Source of the DNA: an uncultured Gammaproteobacteria bacterium
Lineage (GTDB): Bacteria > Patescibacteriota > Microgenomatia > 2-02-FULL-39-11
Assembly: GCA_964354025.1 (NCBI GenBank)
Contig: CAYGXQ010000001.1
Coordinates: 5,963-69,962 of the forward strand
Direction: 5' to 3'
Length of the DNA stretch: 64,000 nucleotides
The translations under genes were made by a program, and so were the position numbers. How positions within the stretch are numbered: position 1 is the stretch's first letter; the number at the start of each line of letters is the position of its first letter. A model generated the notes under the pieces. The model was not told the origin of the DNA. It searched no databases and saw nothing but the letters and a program-made list of their open reading frames with translations. This document shows positions 3,572-62,423 of the stretch, in pieces.

Positions 3572-5002
3572 TTATAGTAAAAGAAAATGAGAGAGTGGAA
3601 TATTAACTGCTGTTTTACTTTCGTTTATTGATAAAGGTGATTTTGATACAACTAATCCGTATTTAGATTTTACACTCTTAGCAGTGTTATTTATTTGGGT
3701 AAATCCTTTTTTTCCGTATCCTACTTCTAATATAATATTTTGTTCATATAAACGGATAATAAAATCAGCTCCACCCGCTGCACTATCATAGGTAAGTGAG
3801 GCGTTTTTATTAACCAGACACCTTGTAAGATAAAGCCCTACCGTATCCTCCAACAACTTTCCCATATACATGTCTTGTCCGATGATATTTCCTACAAAGT
3901 TATAGTACATTGACCTAAAAGCCGGAGAAGCAAAAAGATATTTCGACGGCTTTCTCACTTGAGTTGCATGAGCTCCGTAAGGAAAGACTCTAAGCACTGT
4001 TTCTGTTTTCTCCAGCACATTTAATACCTGGGTAAGAGTTAATCTATCTATATCTAAATCGGGAGCTAAATTAGTAATGCTTAAAATATCGGTGGCGGCA
4101 ACCGTATATAAAATTTCGGGAATCTTTGAGATAATTTCATTTCTAAACTGCCCAAGTTGGGCAATATCCATACTTACCACTCTGTCTAATATCTTTTTTA
4201 TTTGGTCATAAACCAATCCCTCATTTTTCAACTTTACGGCAAACGGTAATGTTCCATATTTCATATATCTGTCTACCTCCAATCTCTCAATACCCATCCA
4301 GTACTGTTTTACTTCATTCTCCAGTATTTTTATTTGGTTAAATACTTCCTCAGATGTATTTGATTCGAAGACAGCCTTCCTTAATTTACCGGATAGTCCT
4401 TTTATTTCAAACTTGTTATCTTTAATTTTGATATATTCAGTAAAACTCATCGGATATAGCTTTTCAAAAATCACGCGTCTTGCTACATCAGGATTAGTTT
4501 GAAGCGTAACAGCAGAAGAGCCTGTTGCGAAAATGAAGACTTTTTTTGACCTGTCAAATATAGTTTTAAGGGTAATTGCCCATTTATTGTCATACTGCAC
4601 CTCATCAAGGAAAAGTACGACCGGTTTATCCAATCTTTCAAAGACGCTTCCCAAAATTTCTTCATAAGCGGACAACACATCGGAAAGCGTGACGCCTATA
4701 ATTTGGGTTATTTGGTCTACTGATAGAAAAAGTTTATTTACCCCAGGTTGAATAGTTTCATAAAATAGTTGAGAAAGAAGAGTTGTTTTCCCTACACCCC
4801 GAAATCCGGATATAGCTAACCAGCGAATTTCCGTATTATCCTGCCGAAAATCATTGTAATATTTATTTAGCTTCACATAACAATTGCGCTTAGGATTTTT
4901 GTTATTTTGTTCATCATATACATAGGCTCTGGCCCTGAAGTTTGCTTGAGCTATTTGTTCCTGAAGATATTTGAGAATAAGGTCTTTCTTCTCAGTAGTC
5001 AT
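3572..5002 (-). CDS. AAA-superfamily ATPase with DUF4143 (COG1373-like), paralog 1
   Basis: 476 aa. Walker A GFRGVGKTTL and Walker B LFLDEVQY. Paralogous to the genes at 13284 and 61119. Confidence 0.75.
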   Translation of the reverse strand: MTTEKKDLILKYLQEQIAQANFRARAYVYDEQNNKNPKRNCYVKLNKYYNDFRQDNTEIRWLAISGFRGVGKTTLLSQLFYETIQPGVNKLFLSVDQITQIIGVTLSDVLSAYEEILGSVFERLDKPVVLFLDEVQYDNKWAITLKTIFDRSKKVFIFATGSSAVTLQTNPDVARRVIFEKLYPMSFTEYIKIKDNKFEIKGLSGKLRKAVFESNTSEEVFNQIKILENEVKQYWMGIERLEVDRYMKYGTLPFAVKLKNEGLVYDQIKKILDRVVSMDIAQLGQFRNEIISKIPEILYTVAATDILSITNLAPDLDIDRLTLTQVLNVLEKTETVLRVFPYGAHATQVRKPSKYLFASPAFRSMYYNFVGNIIGQDMYMGKLLEDTVGLYLTRCLVNKNASLTYDSAAGGADFIIRLYEQNIILEVGYGKKGFTQINNTAKSVKSKYGLVVSKSPLSINESKTAVNIPLSHFLLL

Positions 5003-6332: not shown

Positions 6333-7205
6333 ATGGCAGTCAACTCTTTGGTGAAAGAAAGGATCTGGAAGCTGAAGGAATCATACGATACACTGCGTTC
6401 GGGCAAAGACTCGCTTCTTTCGCTGATTGATGAAGCTGAACTGCCGGAAAATGTCTACAATTCCAATGCCATCGAAAACTCCACATTAACGCTTAAAGAA
6501 ACGGAACAGATTCTTATGGATTTGGAAGTGTCCAGGAAAGTATCGGTCCGCGAAGTTTTTGAAGCTAAAAACTTGGGTCGGGTGATCACCTACAAAAAAA
6601 ACATCTTACACCAGCAGGAATTGTCTATCGAGCTGATTCTTTTTCTTCATAAAATGCTTCTAAGCGGTATAAATGATGATATTGCCGGAAGATTTCGCCA
6701 AGACAATGAATATGTCCGGATCGGTACATTTATTGCCATCCCTCCTGAATATGTGGAACAGCGAATGAAGGAGATATTGATAGAATATTCCAGTAATTTT
6801 TCCCTGTATTTTTTGGAGAAAATTGCCAAATTCCATTTGGATTTTGAGACGATCCATCCGTTTAATGACGGAAACGGCCGTCTGGGACGTGTTTTAATAA
6901 ATTACCACCTGTTGTGTCTTGGTTTCCCCCGGATTATTATCCGCCAAAAAGACAGGAAAATATATTATAAAGCGTTTGAAATATACAGAAATGATAAGAA
7001 AACAAAACTGATGGAAAACGTAATATCGCTTGCGATTTTGGAATCCCTACACAAAAGAATTGCCTATTTAAAAGGGATGACGATTATTCTACTGTCGGAA
7101 TATGCCGGTAAACACAAACTGGGTTCTCCGGCGGTTTTCAATGCCGCCAAAAGACAAACCATTCCCGCTTTCAGGGAAAAAGGAATCTGGAAAATCGGTA
7201 TTTGA
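6333..7205 (+). CDS. fic: Fic/Doc family protein (AMPylase-like)
   Basis: Canonical Fic motif HPFNDGNGRLGR. Confidence 0.8.
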   Translation: MAVNSLVKERIWKLKESYDTLRSGKDSLLSLIDEAELPENVYNSNAIENSTLTLKETEQILMDLEVSRKVSVREVFEAKNLGRVITYKKNILHQQELSIELILFLHKMLLSGINDDIAGRFRQDNEYVRIGTFIAIPPEYVEQRMKEILIEYSSNFSLYFLEKIAKFHLDFETIHPFNDGNGRLGRVLINYHLLCLGFPRIIIRQKDRKIYYKAFEIYRNDKKTKLMENVISLAILESLHKRIAYLKGMTIILLSEYAGKHKLGSPAVFNAAKRQTIPAFREKGIWKIGI

Positions 7206-7332
7206 ATTCCTTATGTATCAAGTTAATACAAACCCGGCGTGAATGTAGAACTTCAGATTAAATATTAACGAACGAAGATATTATTTCTTTTATTGATTAT
7301 GCTATGAATCTACATTATTATTTAATACAAGT

Positions 7333-13283: not shown

Positions 13284-14567
13284 TTAAGATAAATAATTAT
13301 TATCAATTACCCACTTATAAACAGGGATTACTTTTATAATCTGTTTCTTATCCGGTATTTCCTGCTCGGTATTATAAGTCAATATCAAACCGCTGGTTAC
13401 TTTTAATTCTTCCATTGCCTGCTTTAGACTGTCGATCTCTCTTTTCTTCGTCATTTCATCATGTAAATCCCAACATACCTGAATCAGCGCTTTTTTCCTG
13501 TTTGGCAGTTTAATCAAAAAATCAATTTCTTTATTATTCCCGGTTTTATAAAAATAGGTTTCACAACCTTTTCTTAATAACTCCAGAAAAACGCACTGTT
13601 CCATAATTCTTCCCTTATCTTCTGAAAATCTGAAGGAGACGGTATTTGCCAGTCCGCAATCAACGGAATATATCTTTTTGCTAGCTTTTTGTTGAAACTT
13701 GAGAGAATAGGAAAATTGAGACAGTTCAAACGTTAAAAATGCTTCATTGAAATAATTCAGATAATCAGAAATAGTTTCAAAAGAAAGGGAAAAAGTTTTT
13801 TTCAGTGATTCTATAGAAACAGTTTTTGCGGAGTTGGTAATAAGAAATATTCCCATTTTTTCCAGAGTATCTTTTTGCCGCACATCATATCTCATAACAA
13901 TATCTTTCTGGATGATATCAAAATAATATTGTTTTAATAGAGAAAGATTTCCTGTTTTGACTATTTCAGGAAATCCGCCGATTAACAGATATTCATCAAA
14001 ATTTTTAAGTAAAGTTTTTTCCTTGAGTATCAAATCCTTTTTACTTTCTACTTTTATTTCCTTAAAAGATAGAAATTCGCTGAAGGATAAAGGCAGTACC
14101 GAATATGAGATATGCCTGCCGGTAAGCAGAGTGGATAATTCCCGGCTTAACAATTTTGAAGAGGAACCGGTAAGAAAAATTTTATAATTCCCGCCGTCTC
14201 TTAATTTTCTCACCGCGCTTTCCCAATGATTCACGGCGTGGATTTCATCAAAGAAAAGATATTTCAGATTTTGACTGAAATATTCTTTCTGGACTGAGAT
14301 CAATTCTTCTATAACTTCAGGTGAATTATGGGAAACAAAATAAGGATCTTCAAAATTGATAAACAGAAAATCATCAGTGAGTTTTAATTTTTTGATCAGC
14401 AGTTTCAGAATTGATGACTTACCGCTTCTTCTGGGACCAATAATGTCGATCGCTTCCTTGCTTTTATAATCGATATGATCCACAACAGGACGATAATGTA
14501 GGTCTTCCTCATAAGCAGTCTTTTTCCAGAAGTCTATAATTTTGACCAATTGTTGGGTATCATACAT
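13284..14567 (-). CDS. AAA-superfamily ATPase with DUF4143, paralog 2
   Basis: Walker A GPRRSGKSSIL and Walker B LFFDEIH. The architecture matches the genes at 3572 and 61119. Confidence 0.75.
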   Translation of the reverse strand: MYDTQQLVKIIDFWKKTAYEEDLHYRPVVDHIDYKSKEAIDIIGPRRSGKSSILKLLIKKLKLTDDFLFINFEDPYFVSHNSPEVIEELISVQKEYFSQNLKYLFFDEIHAVNHWESAVRKLRDGGNYKIFLTGSSSKLLSRELSTLLTGRHISYSVLPLSFSEFLSFKEIKVESKKDLILKEKTLLKNFDEYLLIGGFPEIVKTGNLSLLKQYYFDIIQKDIVMRYDVRQKDTLEKMGIFLITNSAKTVSIESLKKTFSLSFETISDYLNYFNEAFLTFELSQFSYSLKFQQKASKKIYSVDCGLANTVSFRFSEDKGRIMEQCVFLELLRKGCETYFYKTGNNKEIDFLIKLPNRKKALIQVCWDLHDEMTKKREIDSLKQAMEELKVTSGLILTYNTEQEIPDKKQIIKVIPVYKWVIDNNYLS

Positions 14568-17459: not shown

Positions 17460-17598
17460 CAAGAAAAAGGTACCGTAAGAAATGGACTTCTATTTCGGCT
17501 TAAATTCCTTATGTGTCAAGCTAATACAAACCTGGTGTGGATATAATGGTGTGGATATAATAATTGATATCGGTAGCTGTTAGCTGTACCATATAAAT

Positions 17599-21602: not shown

Positions 21603-21637
21603 GGATTAATTATACAATAACTCGGAATTACCTTGTA

Positions 21638-21733
21638 GTCATTCCGACCGATTCCACGATAGTGGATGAGTGGAGGAATCTTCCCCAGTTGGAAGATCCC
21701 TCGGATCCGCCAGCTGGCGGACTCGGGATGACA
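21638..21733. repeat. MITE-like element copy E1 (imperfect TGTCAT...ATGACA terminal inverted repeats, internal hairpin)
   Basis: A 45-nt core is near-identical to the copy at 33706-33815. The ends are AGTCATTCCGAC / TCGGGATGACAT. Confidence 0.5.
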
Positions 21734-22877
21734 TAAGATACTTTAAAGTATTGCTTTGGGGTGATTCATTTACTCGAAAACAGCGGAGGTAGGGGATATA
21801 GAAAGTAAATAGCCGATTCCCAATTTTCCGGTAATTTATCTGGCACTTCAGATAATCCCCAAAAACTATCTCGTACGGTGTCGGTACGGGTATGGAAACG
21901 GTCGGAGTGGGAGTCAGCGTCGGCGTCTCTATCGATTGGGGTGTAGGAGTAGTGGTAGGAGTAATTGTTGGTGAAACCGTCGGAGTAACAGTCGGCGTTG
22001 GAGTTTGAGTAATAGTTGGGGTGATAGTAGCAGTTGGCGTTAGTGTTTGAGTTGCGGTTGGAGTAGCGGTCATTGTCGGAGTTGGAGTTTCCGTTGGAGT
22101 AACGGTTACAGTTGGCGTAATGGTTGGTGTTACAGTCGGCGTTTCTGTAGGAGTGGGAGTTTGGGTGACAGTCGGGGTAACCGTTGGCGTTGTAGTAGGA
22201 GTTTCTGTCGGTGTTTCTGTTGGCGTTATAGTCGGTGTTACTGTCCCTTCAGGCGGCTCTTGGGGACTGCTGGCATTTTGCGGATCGGATATTGCCCGAG
22301 TGACAAAATCATTTGCGTTATTATCAGAATCTTCCCCGTTTCCGGCAAATTCTTCAAGACCGCCAGGTTTTCGTTCGATACTGCCATTTGCAGTCGGATT
22401 GGTTGGAAAAGGCGCACTCTCAAAATTTTCAGCGGTACCAAATCCCACTTCATCAATAATTGAATCAGTTTGGTTCGTAAGAAATATCGTGTTATTAGGA
22501 GCGAGGATATATGAACCAGAGTTAGAATAAGTAATATCTGGAGTAACCGCTCCATCGTAAGTTGGTGAAGAATAAGTTATCAGGAAATAACTACGCGCAT
22601 TGATAGAAGTTTGTGAAGGAAGTGTGATAATGTCATAAAATGTTGTTCCGCTAGCTGACTTTTTTCTTATTTTCCATCCACTAATATCTTCCGTTTGGCT
22701 CATTGGATTATAAAGTTCGATAAATTCGTCATTAGCAGTCGCGCCAGCAATTTGTATTTCTGAAATGACGACATGGCCGGCGGCGGAAAGGACATTTTGA
22801 GGGAAGAATTTAATGAGAGTTAAAAAAACACCAAAAAGAAAACAAAAAGAAAGAGCGGGCAGGTATTCTTTTTTCAT
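21639..22877 (-). CDS. Secreted lamin-tail-domain (LTD) protein with a long Thr-Pro repeat linker
   Basis: Signal peptide; LTD motif [23 protein letters not shown]...WKI; about 110 residues of TPT(E/V/I)TP repeats. The annotated C-terminus runs into the MITE-like element. Confidence 0.65.
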
Positions 22878-25361: not shown

Positions 25362-26750
25362 ATGGCCGTACAACTTGACTACCTTGCTCCATCGGGCTGG
25401 CAGCCGGAGAATCCGGATGAAAATTACGTTTTGGCCCAGTATAAACTGGAACTGGCGGACGGGATTGATAAAAGCATGTTTGTCCAGGCGGCCGCCTCAA
25501 TCGCCGCCGAATCCTCCACCGGTACCTGGACCAAAGTGGATGCGGGACCGGATTCGGGTATAAAAGTCGCCGAGCAATATAAAGCGGTCGTTTATGACAT
25601 TGATGAGGCAAGCCGTCTTTTCAAAGTCGCATATAAAAAGGATCTCTTTGAAAGAGATAATCTCTCCGGTCTTTTGGCCGGGCCGGCCGGTAACATCGCC
25701 GGAATGAAAATGGTCAAGGCTATGCGGCTTTTTGATATCCGTTTCCCCAAAGTGATGGTTGAGGCTTTCCCTGGACCAAGATACGGCGTTTTGGGAGTGC
25801 GTGACCTTTTGAGCCAAAGCGATGAACAAAGACAAATGCCGATTTTAGGCACTGTCGCCAAACCGAAAGTCGGAAGAACTGCCGGTGAGCAGGCTATTTT
25901 GGCTAAAAGATTGTGGACGGCCGGCGGAGGACTTTACGATTTCATCAAAGATGACGAGAATCTGACCAGTTTGCCTTTTAATAAATTTGAAGACCGCGTC
26001 CGTTTAGTCCATCAAGTCCAAAAAGAGCTGGAAGGAAAAGGCGGCCCCAAAAAACTGTATCTGTGCAACATCACCCATTCCAATCTCGATGTGATGTTGG
26101 AAAGAGCCAACTTGATCAAAGAAAACAGCGGCAGATGTTTAATGATTGACGCAGTGGTTACCGGTTTTTCCGCAGTACATACCCTCAGGTTGAAAAATCC
26201 GGATTTGATCATCCATGCCCACCGGGCGATGCACGGTTTTTTGACGCGGGAAAGCGGTAAAGATTTTATGGGCAGCGGATCTTTGCAGGGATTCAGTATT
26301 TCCATGATTTTACTGGCAAAAATATACCGATTATTGGGAGTGGATTCCCTGCATTCCGGTTCCCCGAAGGCCAAAATGGAGGATTACGGTGAAAGCGGGG
26401 AAATCATGCGTTTACTGACAACGGAAATTACTCCGCCAAATTCCAATTATCATTCTTTAGGGCAAAACTGGTTTGGGAAGTATAAGGTTTGGCCGGTGGC
26501 CTCCGGCGGATTGCATCCGGGAGTGATGGATAAAGTGATGGAAGCCTTCAGCAAAGATTGTTATATCCAGCTCGGCGGCGGAGTTTTGGGGCACCCGCAA
26601 GGGATAGAACGCGGAGTGGAAGCGGCCATTGAGGCAAGAAAAACTGTAATGAAAGGAATGACAATCAATGATTATGTCCGGAAATACCCTGAGTCTGCCC
26701 TTTCTGCCGCCGTCAAACTTTGGGGTACCGAGCCGAAGATTGTTTACTGA
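25362..26750 (+). CDS. rbcL: Ribulose-1,5-bisphosphate carboxylase large-subunit homolog (form II/III-like)
   Basis: GGLYDFIKDDENL, the active-site Lys context MPILGTVAKPKVG, and HAHRAMHG. Size is 462 aa. Confidence 0.85.
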   Translation: MAVQLDYLAPSGWQPENPDENYVLAQYKLELADGIDKSMFVQAAASIAAESSTGTWTKVDAGPDSGIKVAEQYKAVVYDIDEASRLFKVAYKKDLFERDNLSGLLAGPAGNIAGMKMVKAMRLFDIRFPKVMVEAFPGPRYGVLGVRDLLSQSDEQRQMPILGTVAKPKVGRTAGEQAILAKRLWTAGGGLYDFIKDDENLTSLPFNKFEDRVRLVHQVQKELEGKGGPKKLYLCNITHSNLDVMLERANLIKENSGRCLMIDAVVTGFSAVHTLRLKNPDLIIHAHRAMHGFLTRESGKDFMGSGSLQGFSISMILLAKIYRLLGVDSLHSGSPKAKMEDYGESGEIMRLLTTEITPPNSNYHSLGQNWFGKYKVWPVASGGLHPGVMDKVMEAFSKDCYIQLGGGVLGHPQGIERGVEAAIEARKTVMKGMTINDYVRKYPESALSAAVKLWGTEPKIVY

Positions 26751-26778
26751 TAGAAGAGGAGAGTATAATATAAAATCT

Positions 26779-27987
26779 ATGGAAGAATTGGACAGGCTAT
26801 ATCCTTTGATTACGAGCGAAGACCTGACGAAGTACGCCAAACTTTTCCAAAGGGATTTGATCGCCGCTTTGCACAACCAACAGTCTTCGCTTCCTTCCAT
26901 CCTCAATCCCATCCATAAAATTTCAGCCAAAGAGGGTTTTGGAGTGGCTCTCTCCATCGGCGGGACCAACGGTTATGTCTCGGCCTTCCGGATCTCCCGG
27001 AAAAAGGTGATCACTTTCTTAAACCGGAAAATATTTAATCTGCCGGAAAAAACGACCAGGGAAGAACTTTTTCATTTAATCACTAAAAATGTTTTTGCGG
27101 TGGCCTCCGGCCGGAAGAAAAAATTCCCCATAGGTATCGGTCTGGCATACACGCTGAAGCCGGTGCTTCACCACCGCTTCATCGACGGCACTTTGATGTA
27201 TATGTCCAAGGGCAGGGAGATTGAGGGACTGGTGGGACTGCGGGTCGGACAGGAATATCATAAATTTTTAATCGATAAATACGGGATTGATACGGAAGTG
27301 GCGGTGGCCAACGATGCCATTTGTCTGCTTTTGGGCGGAGACGGAGTGGAAATTGCCGGAGTGGTTGGGACAGGACTTAACTTCGCCTATTGGGAAAAAA
27401 GGACGGCCATTGCCCCTTTGAAACTCGGGGAGCTTAATAATTTCTGCCAGGGGGATATCGCCGTCAACATTGAGTCAAATAATTTTGACAAGATAGAGGG
27501 GACGAAGTTAAGAAGCATTGTCGATAAAGAAAGTGAAGATGTTGGATATTCTCTGGCGGAAAAAGAAGCCTCAGGTGCTTATCTGTACCGGCTGTTTAAT
27601 GCCGGAAAAGTGAAACTTTTGGGCAAAGATTTTCCCGATCTGTCTTCCACCGATCAGCTGAACGATATTCTGACGGGCGCTTATATTTTTCCGAAAAATA
27701 TCAGTCAGGAAAAAATAAAAAAGGCCGGACTTTTTGCCCAGCGACTGTTACATCGGAGCGCCCAGATTACGGCCATCCAGTTATGCGGGATCTTCATGAA
27801 AATCGGCAAAACCAAAGGAATAGTATCGGTAGTTATGGAAGGCGGGATTTTTTGGAAAGCGAAAAACTACGCTTCCTTGGTTAACCTTTACGTCAATATG
27901 ATCTTGCCGGAAGTGATCCCTTCTTTTGCCCGGCTTTTTGGAAGCAGTCGTCGCGGAATGGCCATTCTGGCCAGCAGCTTGATCTAA
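26779..27987 (+). CDS. Hexokinase-family sugar kinase
   Basis: SIGGTN, VAVANDAICLLLG, VVGTGLNFAYWE and VNIESNNFD map onto the hexokinase phosphate-1, connect and adenosine motifs. The start is set at an ATG preceded by GAGGAG. Confidence 0.55.
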   Translation: MEELDRLYPLITSEDLTKYAKLFQRDLIAALHNQQSSLPSILNPIHKISAKEGFGVALSIGGTNGYVSAFRISRKKVITFLNRKIFNLPEKTTREELFHLITKNVFAVASGRKKKFPIGIGLAYTLKPVLHHRFIDGTLMYMSKGREIEGLVGLRVGQEYHKFLIDKYGIDTEVAVANDAICLLLGGDGVEIAGVVGTGLNFAYWEKRTAIAPLKLGELNNFCQGDIAVNIESNNFDKIEGTKLRSIVDKESEDVGYSLAEKEASGAYLYRLFNAGKVKLLGKDFPDLSSTDQLNDILTGAYIFPKNISQEKIKKAGLFAQRLLHRSAQITAIQLCGIFMKIGKTKGIVSVVMEGGIFWKAKNYASLVNLYVNMILPEVIPSFARLFGSSRRGMAILASSLI

Positions 27988-28027: not shown

Positions 28028-28128
28028 ATGTCATTGCGATCCCGATGGAAATCGGGAGAAGCAATCCCGTGATGCTGCAATAATTCCTGCGGGATCGCCA
28101 CGGCCAGTCGGACTGGCCTCGCGATGAC
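28028..28128. repeat. MITE-like element copy E4 (TGTCATTGCGA...TCGCGATGACA)
   Basis: 11-nt terminal inverted repeats. Internal blocks GAAGCAATCCCG and GCCACGGC are shared with the copy at 45933-46002. Three internal hairpins. Confidence 0.5.
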
Positions 28129-32196: not shown

Positions 32197-33726
32197 CTAC
32201 TTGTGAGTTCCTTTATCTCCACCTCCGAAGATACCGCTGGCCATCATTTTCAACTGGCCCATATAGTAGAACTGGCTGGCCGCGCCCATGGCCGTCTGGA
32301 AAGAACCGGTCAAAGGCGCCATGATGGTGCCCGGAGAAACAGGCAGGGCCGGTTTAGGCGCGAACATCTTTTTGATCGAGGCAATCAAAGTCGGGGCCAT
32401 GAAAAGGACACCGATGCCGATAAAAGCGGAAAAAACAGGAGGAGTCCCTATGCCCAAAAGAGGCGGTTGCCAGGCCGTGTTTTCCGGATTTTGGGAAGTC
32501 AAAAACATGGCAAACATCAAGACGGCGGCGGTGGCCGGGAAGACGACCAGATTAGCAATGACATTTAAAATCCAGTCGGTAAAAGCGGATTTGCCGGGGA
32601 CAGCCTCCGCCAGAAGCTGGATCGGGCCAATGATCAAAGAAATCATCACCTGGATATAGGAATTCACCAGAAGAAGTACCAGTCTGATGAAAGTAAAAAG
32701 CAGTCCCAGAGCCAAAATCAATATAATAATAGCTGATGGAGCAGCAGCGACAGCTGCTGTGCCCAAACCGATAGTAACGAGACCGGGAATCATAGAAATG
32801 AGTCCAATTACAACAGAGATACCGCCCAGTTGACCTCCATAACCTTTGATAAAATCGTCTACAGATCGGAAGCCGCCGCTGAAAACCGATCCGGCTAAAG
32901 TGCCTAACCCGCCGGTCATATACTGGCTTTGCAGTTCCGCCACTTTTGAAGCAAAACCGCCGCCCATGCCCTGAGCCATGACAGAGATCAGGATAGCCAT
33001 GACCAGATACATCATGTCAATCAGAAAACCGACGATCGGATAAGAAAGGGTGATCAGGACTAAAGTCAGAATGATTTTTGGTAAAGCCGCCTGAAGAGAG
33101 ATGACTGTTTTCGGATCAATTTTCATCCGGAAGATGATCATGAAGCCGATGGCCACCATGACGATAATCAAGATAGCGTAAGCAATATTTCGGGAAGTTT
33201 TCCAAAGAGAAAGAAGCGGGGTCATGGCGGCAAAACCGATCCCTTGGGCAAAAACAGGCTTGATAAAGCCGGCGTTGGCCAGATAGTCACGGGCATAATA
33301 GGCAAAACTGGCCGGAGGATTAGCGTAAATGGATGCTATAACTGTGCTGATATTTCCCAGAGCCGTTTGCTGCGGATTACAATTGTTATCATCAGGAAGG
33401 CAGACTAACAAACTAGTAATAGCGGCCACTTGGACATTAGCGATAAAGATGCTATGAGGGACCGCAGAAATATCAGTTTGTCCTTCTTTGGCTTTTTCCT
33501 CAGTAATATTTAAGTCGTTGACGATTTCCTTCAAACCCATCCTCCAATATCTTGTAGCGGTAGCGGCCGTAGCTTCTTTGGGGAATGAGAAGAATGGAAT
33601 TGCGGCAATAAATATCAAAAGTAAAAATCTGTAGATTTTGGGCAGACGGAGCATATTTTTATTATTCTGCTTTTTGACGGTGGTGTCAATCCTGTATTGT
33701 GTTATTGTCATCCCGACCGATTCCAC
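32197..33726 (-). CDS. VirB6/TrbL-like polytopic membrane protein (putative type-IV-secretion channel component)
   Basis: Signal/TM followed by an extracytoplasmic segment, then 8 or more TM helices and a Gly-rich tail. It sits directly downstream of six VirB2/TrbC-like genes. The true start is probably the ATG at 33711. Confidence 0.45.
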   Translation of the reverse strand: MESVGMTITQYRIDTTVKKQNNKNMLRLPKIYRFLLLIFIAAIPFFSFPKEATAATATRYWRMGLKEIVNDLNITEEKAKEGQTDISAVPHSIFIANVQVAAITSLLVCLPDDNNCNPQQTALGNISTVIASIYANPPASFAYYARDYLANAGFIKPVFAQGIGFAAMTPLLSLWKTSRNIAYAILIIVMVAIGFMIIFRMKIDPKTVISLQAALPKIILTLVLITLSYPIVGFLIDMMYLVMAILISVMAQGMGGGFASKVAELQSQYMTGGLGTLAGSVFSGGFRSVDDFIKGYGGQLGGISVVIGLISMIPGLVTIGLGTAAVAAAPSAIIILILALGLLFTFIRLVLLLVNSYIQVMISLIIGPIQLLAEAVPGKSAFTDWILNVIANLVVFPATAAVLMFAMFLTSQNPENTAWQPPLLGIGTPPVFSAFIGIGVLFMAPTLIASIKKMFAPKPALPVSPGTIMAPLTGSFQTAMGAASQFYYMGQLKMMASGIFGGGDKGTHK

Positions 33727-33815
33727 GATAGTGGATGAGTGGAGGGATCTTCCGCGTTCCGTTAGATGGAAGATTCCTCGACGCGGCCATTATCATGGCC
33801 TTACTCGGAATGACA
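33706..33815. repeat. MITE-like element copy E2 (TGTCATCCCGAC...ACTCGGAATGACA)
   Basis: Same 45-nt core as the copy at 21638. It overlaps the 5' end of the VirB6-like gene. Confidence 0.5.
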
Positions 33816-41201: not shown

Positions 41202-42151
41202 CTCTTACAGTTTCCGCTCCGGGTAAAATCCATCTTTTAGGTGAACACGCGGTCGTTTACGGGAGACCGGCGTTTTTAGCGGCGATTGATAAAAGACTTT
41301 ACGTAAGTATTAAGTATCAGGTATCAGGTATCAGGTATAAAAATAACTCGCTAATTAATTCATCTGAAAAAAAAGATTTGATCCATAGCGCGATTGAAGT
41401 TTTTAAAAAATATTATCAACTAGATAAATTACCTCCAATAGAAATTACCGTAGATTCCCAGATTCCCGTCGGTAGCGGGCTTGGTTCATCGGCCGCGCTT
41501 TCAGCCGCCTTGATCGGCGCACTGATGAAACTTATCAAAAATCTCTGGAATCCGGTAAAAATAAACGAGTTGGTTTACGAAGTGGAAAAAATAGCCCACG
41601 GTCATCCTTCAGGCGCGGATAACACAGCGGTTGTTTTCGGCGGCTTGGTCTGGTACCGGCGTGAATTTGATTTTTTAAAATCCATTTGGAGCTTGCCGGT
41701 TACCGCTTATAAAATCCCTAAATTTCTTTTGATAGATTCGGGCAGACCGATTGAAACAACTAAAAAGATGGTAGAGGCGGTTGCTTCTCAATATCATAAA
41801 AATCCAAAAAAGATGGAAGTAGTTTTTGCCGATCAGGAGAAACAGACAAAAAAACTGCTTTTGGCTTTAAAAAGCGGCGACCGTCAAATTTTGATTAGAA
41901 CGATGAAAAAAGGACAGAGGAATCTGGATAAAATATCTGTTGTTGGTTCATACGCAAGAAAAATTATCAAAGAGATTGAAAAGGCGGGAGGAGCGGCAAA
42001 AGTTACCGGCGCCGGGGGAAAGAAAAAAGGAAGCGGAATGATTCTTGCTTATCATCATGATCCAAGCGTCATCCAGCAAATTGCGGCAATGTTTAAAGTG
42101 TCAGTTTTATCGGTTGATTTAGGAGGAGAAGGAGTGCGGATTGAGTATTAG
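41198..42151 (+). CDS. mvk: Mevalonate kinase (GHMP family)
   Basis: APGKIHLLGEHAVVYG and PVGSGLGSSAA, with a C-terminal GAGGKKKGSG. Contains an in-frame GTATCA hexamer repeat. Confidence 0.75.
   Translation: MTLTVSAPGKIHLLGEHAVVYGRPAFLAAIDKRLYVSIKYQVSGIRYKNNSLINSSEKKDLIHSAIEVFKKYYQLDKLPPIEITVDSQIPVGSGLGSSAALSAALIGALMKLIKNLWNPVKINELVYEVEKIAHGHPSGADNTAVVFGGLVWYRREFDFLKSIWSLPVTAYKIPKFLLIDSGRPIETTKKMVEAVASQYHKNPKKMEVVFADQEKQTKKLLLALKSGDRQILIRTMKKGQRNLDKISVVGSYARKIIKEIEKAGGAAKVTGAGGKKKGSGMILAYHHDPSVIQQIAAMFKVSVLSVDLGGEGVRIEY
41305..41338. repeat. In-frame hexamer microsatellite (AGTATT/GGTATC, about 5.5 units) inside mvk
   Basis: aagtattaagtatcaggtatcaggtatcaggtat, encoding VSIKYQVSGIRYK. Confidence 0.6.
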
Positions 42152-42236
42152 GTATTAGGTATCAAGTATTAAGTATAAAAATACTTTTTTAATAAATACA
42201 TAATACCTAATACTTAATACCTGATACTTTATACTA
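42144..42236. repeat. Palindromic hexamer-repeat hairpin (GTATTA/GGTATC arms) in the mvk-kinase intergenic spacer
   Basis: A left arm of hexamer repeats and a right arm that is its approximate reverse complement, separated by an AT-rich loop. Confidence 0.55.
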
Positions 42237-45932: not shown

Positions 45933-46002
45933 TGTCATTGCGAGCAAAGCGAAGCAATCCCGGTCGAGATTGCCACGGCTACTTCGTAGCCTCGCAATGA
46001 CA
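45933..46002. repeat. MITE-like element copy E3 (perfect 12-nt terminal inverted repeats TGTCATTGCGAG / CTCGCAATGACA)
   Basis: Internal blocks are shared with the copy at 28028. It is preceded by a GTATCA tandem repeat (45911-45930). Confidence 0.55.
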
Positions 46003-61118: not shown

Positions 61119-62423
61119 ATGAATACAATATTAAGGACGCTTTTATACGAATGGAAGGATAGAAAATTACCCCCGATAATAGGGCGGGATACCCATTTGG
61201 ACACCTCACTGCAACAGGGGACTAATAACGCAACGGTGATAACCGGGTTTAGACGGGTAGGAAAGACATACCTGGTTTATGAGGCTATAGAAAAGCTTTT
61301 GGAGACCCATCCCCGTGATGAGGTAGTTTATATTAACTTTGAAGATGAGCGGATAATTTCACCCGCCACCGAGTTACTCACTGATCTGATACCGGAAATA
61401 CAGGCGGTTTACGGTAAAAAACCTAAATATCTCTTTTTGGATGAACTGCAGCTTATCCCTAACTGGTCAAAATGGGTGCGCCGGATACTGGATACAGAGT
61501 CAATACAAATATTTATAACCGGTTCCTCCTCAAAAATGGGCAGTGCGGAATTGCCGACAGAGCTTCGGGGCAGAGAATGGGAAGTAATAGTCAGCCCGCT
61601 TACCTTCGCCGAATTTTTACGCTTTAAGAAGGTAAATATAGACTTTGGGAAATCAGCCTTCGTAAAAGATGAGATGGCGCGCTTTCGTTTTCTTTTTGAC
61701 GAATACCTGACATTTGGATCGTTACCGGCCGTAGTGTTGACAACACATGAGAAAAAACAGGAGCTTTTACAGTCCTATTTTCAGACCGTAGTACAAAGGG
61801 ATATAGCCGAAAGGCATAAGATAGACAATGACACCGCGCTAAAAACACTTTTGAAACTGCTTCTTAATTCGAGCTATATTACGATTTCAAAACTGGCCAA
61901 TTCTCTCAAAAGCATGAGTATACCAATAGGAAAGTCAACAGTAAATAATTACCTTTCCTATATAGAAAGCTCGTACTTTATGAGCGAGCTTTATATCTAT
62001 AGTCCGGCAGTGATAAATCAACTGCAATATCCGCGAAAAGTATATTTTGTCGATACCGGATTTATGACCGCGTTGTCCACTAAATTTTCTAAAAATATGG
62101 GTAGACTATTTGAAAACACAGTTTTTCATAAGTTGGTGCGGGAAAACCTGTTAGCACAGACAGGCGAAACTATACACTACTACAAAGACGATAAAGGCAG
62201 CGAGGTAGATTTTGCCATTCTTAGTCAAGGTAAAACTACTGCTTTATATCAGGTATGTTTTGATCTGACTGATGAAGAAACACAGAGCCGGGAAGTGAAA
62301 TCGCTCATAAAAGCGGGGACAACTTTAAACTGCAAAAACCTTAACCTTATAACCCTGGAAAAACCTAATGCATTAAAACTGCTTCAAGAAATAAAAGTTA
62401 TTTCCGCCCCGGAATTTCTATAA
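61119..62423 (+). CDS. AAA-superfamily ATPase with DUF4143, paralog 3
   Basis: Walker A GFRRVGKTYL and Walker B LFLDELQ. A C-terminal DUF4143-like region as in paralogs 1 and 2. Confidence 0.75.
   Translation: MNTILRTLLYEWKDRKLPPIIGRDTHLDTSLQQGTNNATVITGFRRVGKTYLVYEAIEKLLETHPRDEVVYINFEDERIISPATELLTDLIPEIQAVYGKKPKYLFLDELQLIPNWSKWVRRILDTESIQIFITGSSSKMGSAELPTELRGREWEVIVSPLTFAEFLRFKKVNIDFGKSAFVKDEMARFRFLFDEYLTFGSLPAVVLTTHEKKQELLQSYFQTVVQRDIAERHKIDNDTALKTLLKLLLNSSYITISKLANSLKSMSIPIGKSTVNNYLSYIESSYFMSELYIYSPAVINQLQYPRKVYFVDTGFMTALSTKFSKNMGRLFENTVFHKLVRENLLAQTGETIHYYKDDKGSEVDFAILSQGKTTALYQVCFDLTDEETQSREVKSLIKAGTTLNCKNLNLITLEKPNALKLLQEIKVISAPEFL

Follow-up and report, generated by a model that had tools for sequence, protein, structure and literature searches.

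Two palindromic repeats in a Gottesmanbacteria contig, probably head-to-head dimers of REP-like units

The present analysis concerns two elements, E1 and E2, within a 64,000-nucleotide stretch (hereafter the window) of contig CAYGXQ010000001.1 from a bacterium of the candidate phyla radiation (CPR; Gottesmanbacteria). The core of E1 was located at 21638..21732, between an LTD gene and the gene of a 175-aa membrane protein, and that of E2 at 33707..33814, between a pilin gene (106 aa) and a VirB6-like gene; at both loci the - strand is the transcribed one. A sequence-only reading had drawn attention to a hairpin inside each element and had proposed that reciprocal base changes between the two copies preserve its pairing. 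It was found here that these hairpins sit within larger quasi-palindromes with the ends GTCATYCCGA...TCGGRATGAC, and that E1 and E2 share 92% identity over their leftmost 52 nt. As shown below, E1 and E2 are insertion-polymorphic, mostly intergenic repeats that consist of two slightly different inverted hairpin units.

Each unit is composed, in this order, of a (T/A/C)GTC tag, a stem starting with AT (ATYCC), GA, a variable interior, GA, GGRAT and a short tail. Two such units are inverted relative to each other, with the tags outside and a spacer between them. E1 is a head-to-head heterodimer, in which aGTC-ATTCC...GGAAT-C (the T unit) is followed by the spacer and by G-ATCCC...GGGAT-GACa (the C unit), and in E2 the unit types are swapped (tGTC-ATCCC...GGGAT-C, spacer, G-ATTCC...GGAAT-GACa). 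The interior of a unit is 11-12 nt long, or it contains a nested hairpin whose sequence varies completely from copy to copy but is always self-complementary; eight versions were counted at the left position among the copies of the family. In E1 a CCAC-GATA-GTGG hairpin (21654..21665) is nested within the loop of the T unit and a CCGCC-AGCT-GGCGG hairpin (21707..21720) within the C unit, and the T unit of E2 carries a GGCCAT-TATC-ATGGCC hairpin (33785..33800). The spacer of both elements forms CTTCC-loop-GGAAG, and the 12-bp central hairpin is made up of 7 bp from the inner arms of the units and 5 bp from this spacer. In E1 it spans 21673..21702 and comprises the inner arms of both units (GA-GGAAT / ATCCC-TC), the spacer stem CTTCC/GGAAG and the loop CCAGTT, and in E2 it spans 33742..33779.

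The hairpin sequences were present exactly where the sequence-only reading had placed them, namely GAGGAATCTTCC (21673-21684), the loop and GGAAGATCCCTC (21691-21702) in E1, and GAGGGATCTTCC (33742-33753), the loop GCGTTCCGTTAGAT and GGAAGATTCCTC (33768-33779) in E2. The loops also differ in length between the copies, as had been noticed (6 nt in E1 and 14 nt in E2). Within the window the hairpin 12-mer, with at most one mismatch allowed, was confined to E1 and E2, with 4 matches counted over both strands where 0.8 were expected. Both arm differences between the copies fall on one and the same pair, the fifth of the 12. In E1 this pair reads A·C on the + strand and G·U on the - strand, and in E2 it reads G·T (G·U in RNA) and C·A, respectively; the stem of each copy therefore has 11 Watson-Crick pairs and one non-Watson-Crick pair. 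The nearly perfect 12-bp stem with reciprocal changes was thus confirmed as a stem, but its supposed compensation was not, as A·C and G·T stand where A-T or G-C would be needed. The sixth pair of the outer stem behaves similarly, E1 having T·G there and E2 having C·A. The base differences between E1 and E2 amount to a mismatch or a wobble, with no compensatory Watson-Crick exchange.

The arms of E2, in the outer as well as in the central stem, equal the reverse complement of those of E1. Despite these reverse-complement stems, E1 and E2 carry the 25-nt module CCGATTCCACGATAGTGGATGAGTG on one and the same side, and the arms look reverse-complemented because the module is carried by a different unit type in each. 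As each unit is an inverted copy of the other, a long hairpin or cloverleaf is open to the complete dimer as well, and in that fold the heterology of the units shows as one T·G and one A·C. When both strands of each copy were folded, as the sequence-only reading had suggested, all were far more stable than shuffled controls (z of -4.6 to -5.7 with RNA and -3.5 to -4.3 with DNA parameters), and the predicted fold of E1 and E2 was a cloverleaf of an outer stem with left, central and right hairpins. The fold into two separate units was dismissed as the thermodynamic ground state, being 3-14 kcal/mol less stable than the cloverleaf.

Further copies were obtained by an exact search with the left module, which returned copies in metagenome-assembled genomes of Gottesmanbacteria and Roizmanbacteria, and by a metagenome scan for the central hairpin in which the R and Y positions were left free, which returned 48 loci (loci and contigs are referred to by L numbers). 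The ends GTCATYCCGA / TCGGRATGAC flanked the hairpin in nearly all of the 48, although they were absent from the search pattern; a scan of viral contigs for the central hairpin gave 0 matches. Four positions vary in a linked manner, namely Y1 in the 5' end, R1 in the 5' central arm, Y2 in the 3' central arm and R2 in the 3' end. They read T,A,C,G or the reverse complement C,G,T,A in 24-25 unique copies (T/C heterodimers) and C,G,C,G in 17 (C/C homodimers), with two single-site exceptions. It follows from this class pattern that Y1 is complementary to R1 and Y2 to R2, and indeed each half has an inverted repeat of its own, ATTCC...GGAAT or ATCCC...GGGAT.

Other stem types were found to pair within halves as well, such as ATTGC-GCAAT | ATCGC-GCGAT (window 28030-28128) and ATCCT-AGGAT | ATTCT-AGAAT (L026, L045). 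Two chimeras, ATTGC-GCAAT | ATTCC-GGAAT (L050:3194) and ATTCC-GGAAT | ATCCT-AGGAT (L052:1657), both retained pairing within each half, whereas pairing across the halves was broken by transversion mismatches. Covariation was then assessed on an alignment of 15 distinct sequence combinations derived from about 50 copies. Under within-half pairing 99.3% of the cells were paired, with double-sided changes at 6 pairs and 21 cells, a result reached by 0 of 500 shuffles. Cross-half pairing (outer stem plus central hairpin) left 92% of the cells paired with 4 pairs and 6 cells changed on both sides, and 2 of the 500 shuffles reached that number of paired cells; 9 cells at variable columns remained unpaired. 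The within-unit stems are accordingly conserved through double-sided changes. Reciprocal changes that preserve pairing in the internal hairpin, as originally claimed, found no support in either the A·C and G·T pairs of E1 and E2 or the cells left unpaired.

The copies that contain a CCGA-hairpin-TGAGTG module fell into two lineages. In type 1, which is E1-like, the module lies in the T unit, the loops are 6 nt long and the dimer lies within a composite repeat of 190-210 nt. In type 2, which is E2-like, the module lies in the C unit, the loops are 13-14 nt long (RCRTTCCGTWNRTT) and the flanks are unlike those of type 1. The left flank of the composite repeat carrying E1 (21621..21637) is CTCGGAATTACCTTGTA, a shortened form of GAATTCCTCGAAGCTCTGCTTCGGGGTTACCTTGTA from other genomes, and the right flank (21733..21771) runs from ATAAGATAC to GGGGTGATTCATT; on the - strand this right flank is read as LTD codons. 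A flip/flop inversion of the kind known from parvovirus hairpins was considered and rejected for the two lineages, as type-1 copies keep one orientation relative to the composite flanks and the types differ in loops as well as flanks.

Comparison of orthologous sites allowed the presence of the elements to be followed among relatives. At the E2 site the synteny of pilin gene and VirB6-like gene is kept. The spacer between them measures 162 nt in the window and 37-66 nt, with no element, in L053, L054, L062, L063 and L064. L052 was found to contain another, canonical dimer of 53 nt at this site, TGTC-ATTCCCGC-GAAA-GCGGGAAT-CTAG-ATCCTCCGG-TCAAG-CCGGAGGAT-GACA (the intervals compared were L052:1657-1709, window 33707-33814 and L062:1447-1501). 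Since the site is filled in L052 and empty in its closest relative, L062, presence varies even among close relatives. A 17-nt flank at 33690..33706 (AATAACACAATACAGGA on the - strand) also accompanies the element in L052 and is absent from the empty L062 site; it probably belongs to the inserted DNA. The differing states of the E2 site point to one of two histories: either it was targeted more than once, or an old insertion was remodelled and subsequently disappeared. An exact database look-up of the pilin gene product returned no entry.

At the E1 site the gene order Zip / LTD / 175-aa protein / Fe-hydrogenase domain is kept in L056-L059. L056 and L059 have no element there, their LTD stop codon being 3 nt from the next ATG, and the interval measures about 166 nt in the window against about 23 nt at the empty sites. 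Judged by these sequence comparisons, E1 and E2 were shown to be insertions that are missing at orthologous sites in related Gottesmanbacteria, although the filled and empty sites are much diverged, which blurs the exact insertion edges and the target sequence.

Both copies do lie upstream of membrane-protein start codons on the - strand, as the sequence-only reading had observed, E1 by 35 nt (ATG 21602) and E2 by 52 nt (ATG 33654). The conserved upstream element which this placement implied was not borne out, for the orthologous sites without the element retain the genes and their promoters. A promoter-like TTGACA-N17-AATAAT (33661..33689, - strand) ends 6 nt upstream of ATG 33654, and the whole TTGACA-N17-AATAAT-N6-ATG arrangement is conserved at filled and empty E2 sites alike. 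At the E1 locus an extended -10 box, TGTATAAT (21609..21616, - strand), stands 6 nt upstream of ATG 21602. This box was read directly from the sequence, as a consensus promoter scan did not list it owing to the lack of a -35 match. It is conserved at element-free sites, inside the last LTD codons, and is thus no part of E1.

Promoter-like boxes 6 nt before the ATG of the VirB6-like and 175-aa genes were seen across L052, L053, L054, L062, L056 and L059, which suggests from their spacing that both messenger RNAs may be leaderless or near-leaderless. In L062 (1490-1510) the deposited start of the VirB6-like protein (P0003, MSKIF...) appears to have been called too far downstream, as an in-frame ATG CTC CGC TTG TCC AAA (MLRLSK) lies 6 nt after the AATAAT box, as in the other genomes.

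The insertions have consequences for the reading of the neighbouring genes. The LTD open reading frame (ORF) crosses the composite flank and then the entire E1 core (MSSRV...NRSE), up to a TGA in GGAATGAC, the far terminus. About 43 codons together with the stop codon (21639..21771, - strand) are in this way derived from the element. The annotated protein has 412 aa and is identical to P0121, while LTD homologues finish 0-13 residues past the second conserved Cys, the closest ending in ...RCFREKISLENNLLYN. The VirB6-like ORF likewise has two further possible starts within E2, a GTG at 33726 and an ATG at 33711, which gives a spurious N-terminal extension of 24 codons (33655..33726, - strand; VESVGMTITQ...). 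Its homologues begin with M-x-x-LPK, which matches ATG 33654, the start also used for P0001 (485 aa) in the public annotation. The suspicion that the terminal codons read out of the elements are not genuine was therefore upheld by the homologues, with the counts corrected from 13 to about 43 for LTD and from 5 to 24 for the VirB6-like gene. For annotation this means that the public LTD record carries about 43 spurious C-terminal residues from a repeat, and that an ORF-based reading of the VirB6-like gene adds 24 spurious N-terminal codons.

Four copies of the family were counted in the 64 kb of the window. The third (28030..28128) has stems of the GC type and is a T/C heterodimer, GTC-ATTGC...GCAAT / ATCGC...GCGAT-GAC, with two nested hairpins; it lies between an ORF ending at 27987 and a 1324-aa gene. 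The fourth (45934..46001), of the same stem type, is a T/T homodimer, ATTGC...GCAAT / ATTGC...GCAAT, and is situated between the genes of an undecaprenyl diphosphate synthase and a nucleotidyl transferase. The GC-type stems of these two dimers read GTCATTGCGA....

Across the family, 43 of 54 unique copies were intergenic, in loci of which 73% is covered by ORFs (27% non-ORF DNA). Flanking direct repeats were absent in 41 of 53 copies, and were of 1 nt in 10 and of 2 nt in 2. The ends and the central stem were also present on contigs of 67-69% GC; the PhoX encoded on one of these shares 85% identity with its counterpart in Vineibacter and 84% with its counterpart in Reyranella, both of them Alphaproteobacteria.

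Partial units were seen adjoining complete dimers (L026:4417-4470, L007:5569-5610, L015:5640-5690 and L047:1091-1110), including a tandem run of three 5' ends (GTCATCCCRAGGGGTT...) and additional 3' halves (GGAAGATCCCTCGACAGGCTCGGGATGAC), and these resemble the clusters and decayed singlets of other families of repetitive extragenic palindromic (REP) sequences. On the QMCD contigs (54-61% GC; L005, L006, L009, L012, L014, L016, L020, L027, L028, L043, L046 and L051) C/C homodimers are embedded in a composite repeat of 185-300 nt with conserved flanks (…GCGAATGGAAATGCGAGCATGCGCGACACAAGG…), which occurs in many different contexts in one metagenome and is crossed by spurious ORFs. A kilobase-scale parent element was rejected, as the QMCD copies have just these 185-300 nt in common.

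By the sequence-only reading, as understood here, the hairpins would belong to a conserved structured RNA of the - strand, a leader, terminator/attenuator or small RNA with a compensatory central stem. The position of both copies 35-52 nt upstream of membrane-protein start codons on one strand agrees with this, as do the very stable predicted folds (z about -5) and the nested hairpins, which vary in sequence yet remain paired. However, the fifth pair is non-compensatory, and each strand of each copy carries one wobble and one mismatch, so that no strand is favoured. The orthologous genes of relatives keep their promoters without the element, other copies adjoin unrelated genes in either orientation, and the promoters lie downstream of the elements, which are thereby placed outside the 5' leaders. 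Covariation, moreover, favours pairing within the halves. With Rfam 15, run on the whole window at the gathering threshold and on E1 and E2 at E<=10, no family reached the gathering score at either element, and the matches there were at chance level. A hammerhead or other ribozyme, suggested by the GATGAG and GUC strings, was discarded because the core did not fit and no Rfam match was present. We consider a structured RNA highly improbable; E1 and E2 are ordinary repeat DNA and no conserved regulatory RNA.

A MITE (miniature inverted-repeat transposable element) of the DDE type would account for the perfect or near-perfect terminal inverted repeats of 10-11 bp with TG...CA ends, for the size of 70-120 bp, and for an intergenic, presence-polymorphic occurrence within larger composite repeats. 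Such an element would be expected to duplicate its target, whereas the direct repeats of 1-2 nt mentioned above are at the level of chance. Covariation ties each terminus to an internal segment of its own half, a link which a transposase binding terminal repeats does not need, and neither a transposase gene nor any longer element bounded by such ends turned up in the window or around the copies; a MITE is therefore held to be improbable. The bacterial interspersed mosaic elements (BIMEs) and REPINs built of GTAG-type REPs, mobilised by RAYT (REP-associated HUH tyrosine transposase), have a like organisation of two inverted units and a spacer forming a long hairpin, are extragenic and lack target duplication, and heterodimers are known among them as the Y/Z2 pairs of E. 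coli. The tag here is (T/A/C)GTC instead of GT[AG]G, however. Pfam analysis of all 74 ORFs of the window, the 64 kb of this genome that the analysis covered, revealed no transposase, Y1 transposases included, but ordinary CPR functions, and a tblastn search with E. coli RayT against the 0.48 Mb of DNA examined gave a non-significant best E-value of 0.84. When the ORFs near copies were clustered, no recurrent family appeared besides syntenic genes and spurious ORFs over the repeats. CGTC-type REPs, to which the tags point, are in addition described as flanking no RAYT in the account cited next, and mobilisation of this sort was judged very improbable.

Taken together, we regard it as likely that E1 and E2 are dispersed non-coding palindromic repeats, head-to-head dimers of REP-like units of the CGTC/TGTC superfamily (Di Nocera, De Gregorio and Rocco, 2013, BMC Genomics 14:522; PMC3733652). 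Several points weigh against this view. Membership in the superfamily was judged from the textual description in that paper and not from its consensus sequences. In E1 and E2 the unit stem is 5 bp long and followed by GA/GA, and the loops are of 25-29 nt, as opposed to 8-9 bp and 4-5 nt in the CGTC families as described there. No mobilising enzyme was found, and mobility itself was not directly observed. The covariation derives from few independent events, with three variable stem positions in closely related copies, and the inner arms were placed by a script that scored both pairings. Finally, in ViennaRNA the cloverleaf or long hairpin beats the two-unit fold by 5-14 kcal/mol (RNA) or 3-6.5 kcal/mol (DNA).

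On the reading of E1 and E2 as REP-like dimers, the elements would spread, or would formerly have spread, as single-stranded or extruded (cruciform) DNA, and their unit hairpins would be recognised in trans by a putative recombinase. The heterology of the units could serve to keep the long palindrome imperfect. At their present loci E1 and E2 may be neutral passengers of 3' untranslated or intergenic regions, at most stabilising or terminating the upstream transcript. The one-base heterology of a T-A and a C-G unit recurs in the stem families ATYCC, ATYGC and ATYCT, and was seen in CPR-type contigs as well as in at least one high-GC contig (L030). A heterodimer can be drawn as a four-way junction that would branch-migrate between two isomers, one of two perfectly paired unit hairpins and the other a long hairpin or cloverleaf that contains a single T·G and a single A·C. 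Were this asymmetry under selection, a strand-specific recombinase could use it to tell the left end from the right. We think this unlikely, though if it were true such a recombinase would be the missing mobilising enzyme of CGTC-type REPs; the T/C heterodimer and its branch-migratable junction are the sole features that might repay further work.

The covariation within units bears on how a REP superfamily without a transposase is recognised and spread. The present case also indicates that a palindromic dimer whose two units differ slightly can give rise to apparently mirrored hairpin substitutions as a side effect, and covariation of this kind therefore needs a test of alternative pairings before a structured RNA is proposed.

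Apart from these repeats, other features of the window were recorded. A 46-nt direct repeat, TTRAATTCCTTATGTRTCAAGYTAATACAAACCYGGYGTGRATRTA, occurs at 7202-7247 and 17500-17545, 10.3 kb apart and 85% identical. Each copy lies about 50-90 nt upstream of a + strand ORF, the second just past tRNA-Ser(gga), and between the copies lie four tRNA genes along with a BrnT/CopG toxin-antitoxin pair and an ATPase of the AAA_14/DUF4143 kind; the repeat could be a shared promoter or leader, or could mark the ends of an island. A 33-nt inverted repeat (41306-41338 and 42203-42235), 88% complementary and built of GTATCAG-like heptamers, encloses the greater part of the first GHMP-kinase gene in a mevalonate operon. 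Three paralogous AAA_14 + DUF4143 ATPase genes (3572-5002, 13284-14567 and 61119-62423) are contained in the 64 kb along with the toxin-antitoxin pairs PIN/RHH, BrnT/CopG and ParE/Phd and two Fic-domain genes, and this density is high for a small CPR genome. A homologue of the RuBisCO large subunit, form II/III-like by its context, is encoded at 25362-26750, and its 3' end is overlapped by about 80 nt by a 439-aa ORF (26668-27987).

Among known repeats, similarity to REPIN/BIME elements lies in the two inverted REPs and spacer folding into one hairpin (PMC3116915) and in an extragenic, multi-copy occurrence without target duplications, the BIMEs of E. coli pairing REP subtypes Y with Z (PMC3116915, PMC6006769). 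The difference is in the tag, which in those elements is a GT[AG]G 5' of the hairpin foot (PMC6006769), and in host range, as E1/E2-type termini occur in two phyla whereas GTAG REPs are described as species-specific (PMC6006769). Neisseria dRS3, which has the consensus ATTCCCN8GGGAAT and flanks RS elements (PMC1797815), has the unit stem ATTCC.../...GGAAT in common with the present family, and its inverted units likewise flank variable spacers. An exact fit to the dRS3 consensus is given by ATTCCCGCGAAAGCGGGAAT, the left unit of the dimer that occupies the E2 site in L052, whereas E1 and E2, with ATTCC-N25-29-GGAAT, depart from its ATTCCCNNNNNNNNGGGAAT. Long arrays such as those of dRS3 and NIME (Neisseria intergenic mosaic elements) were absent from the window, and no filamentous-phage integration was seen at these sites. 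The Rickettsia palindromic elements (RPE) RPE-4 and RPE-6 resemble E1 in being palindromic repeats readable as part of an ORF, as E1 is by LTD; E1, however, takes the place of the gene's C-terminus and stop codon, whereas RPE are in-frame internal insertions. A full-text literature search for the terminal 12-mers gave unrelated primer sequences only.

The closest agreement was obtained with the CGTC REPs, as characterised in the text of PMC3733652. There the tag is CGTC, often TGTC, with a variant CCTC. The stems have 8-9 bp, A-T and T-A being almost invariably first, with loops of 4-5 nt and mostly CCA as the tail. Most of these REPs are head-to-head dimers with the tags outside, frequently heterodimers with 'no obvious explanation', whose components fold singly or as one large stem-loop. 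They lie just downstream of ORFs, to which they sometimes supply stop codons or extensions. They are described from five phyla, mostly Alphaproteobacteria, with no dedicated transposase, and the same text equates CGTC-1 with Neisseria dRS3 and Rickettsia RPE-4 and RPE-6 with CGTC-4 and CGTC-1.

Set against this description, the tags are AGTC and TGTC in E1 and TGTC twice in E2, and CGTC itself was found in the alphaproteobacterial L004, L011, L033 and L044; copies on contigs of alphaproteobacterial type agree with the host range as published. The first two stem pairs of the CGTC families are found in the ATYCC...GGRAT of all four E1/E2 units, and these columns are invariant in the alignment. 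Relatives with the published stem and loop lengths were also identified, namely L032:539, the left unit of L045:7884, and L052:1657, which has 8 and 9 bp with loops GAAA and TCAAG. E1 and E2 have CTT as the tail, paired within the spacer stem; L052 has CTA, and L032:539 and L045:7884 have CCA. All copies have their tags outside, with 24 T/C heterodimers against 17 C/C homodimers (unique CC-type copies), and the intergenic placement 3' of ORFs holds for 43 of 54 copies, E1 and E2 each directly following the upstream ORF. The host is a further difference, as a CPR bacterium such as this one was not found mentioned in the text of PMC3733652, which predates most CPR genomes. Dimers of CGTC/TGTC REPs would hereby be placed in a CPR bacterium with a very small genome, a group which that account was not found to mention for such repeats. 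By the evidence of their sequences, E1 and E2 are best described as derived forms in which the unit stem is 5 bp long and the loops are enlarged, and may be filed as a variant lineage of the CGTC REPs.

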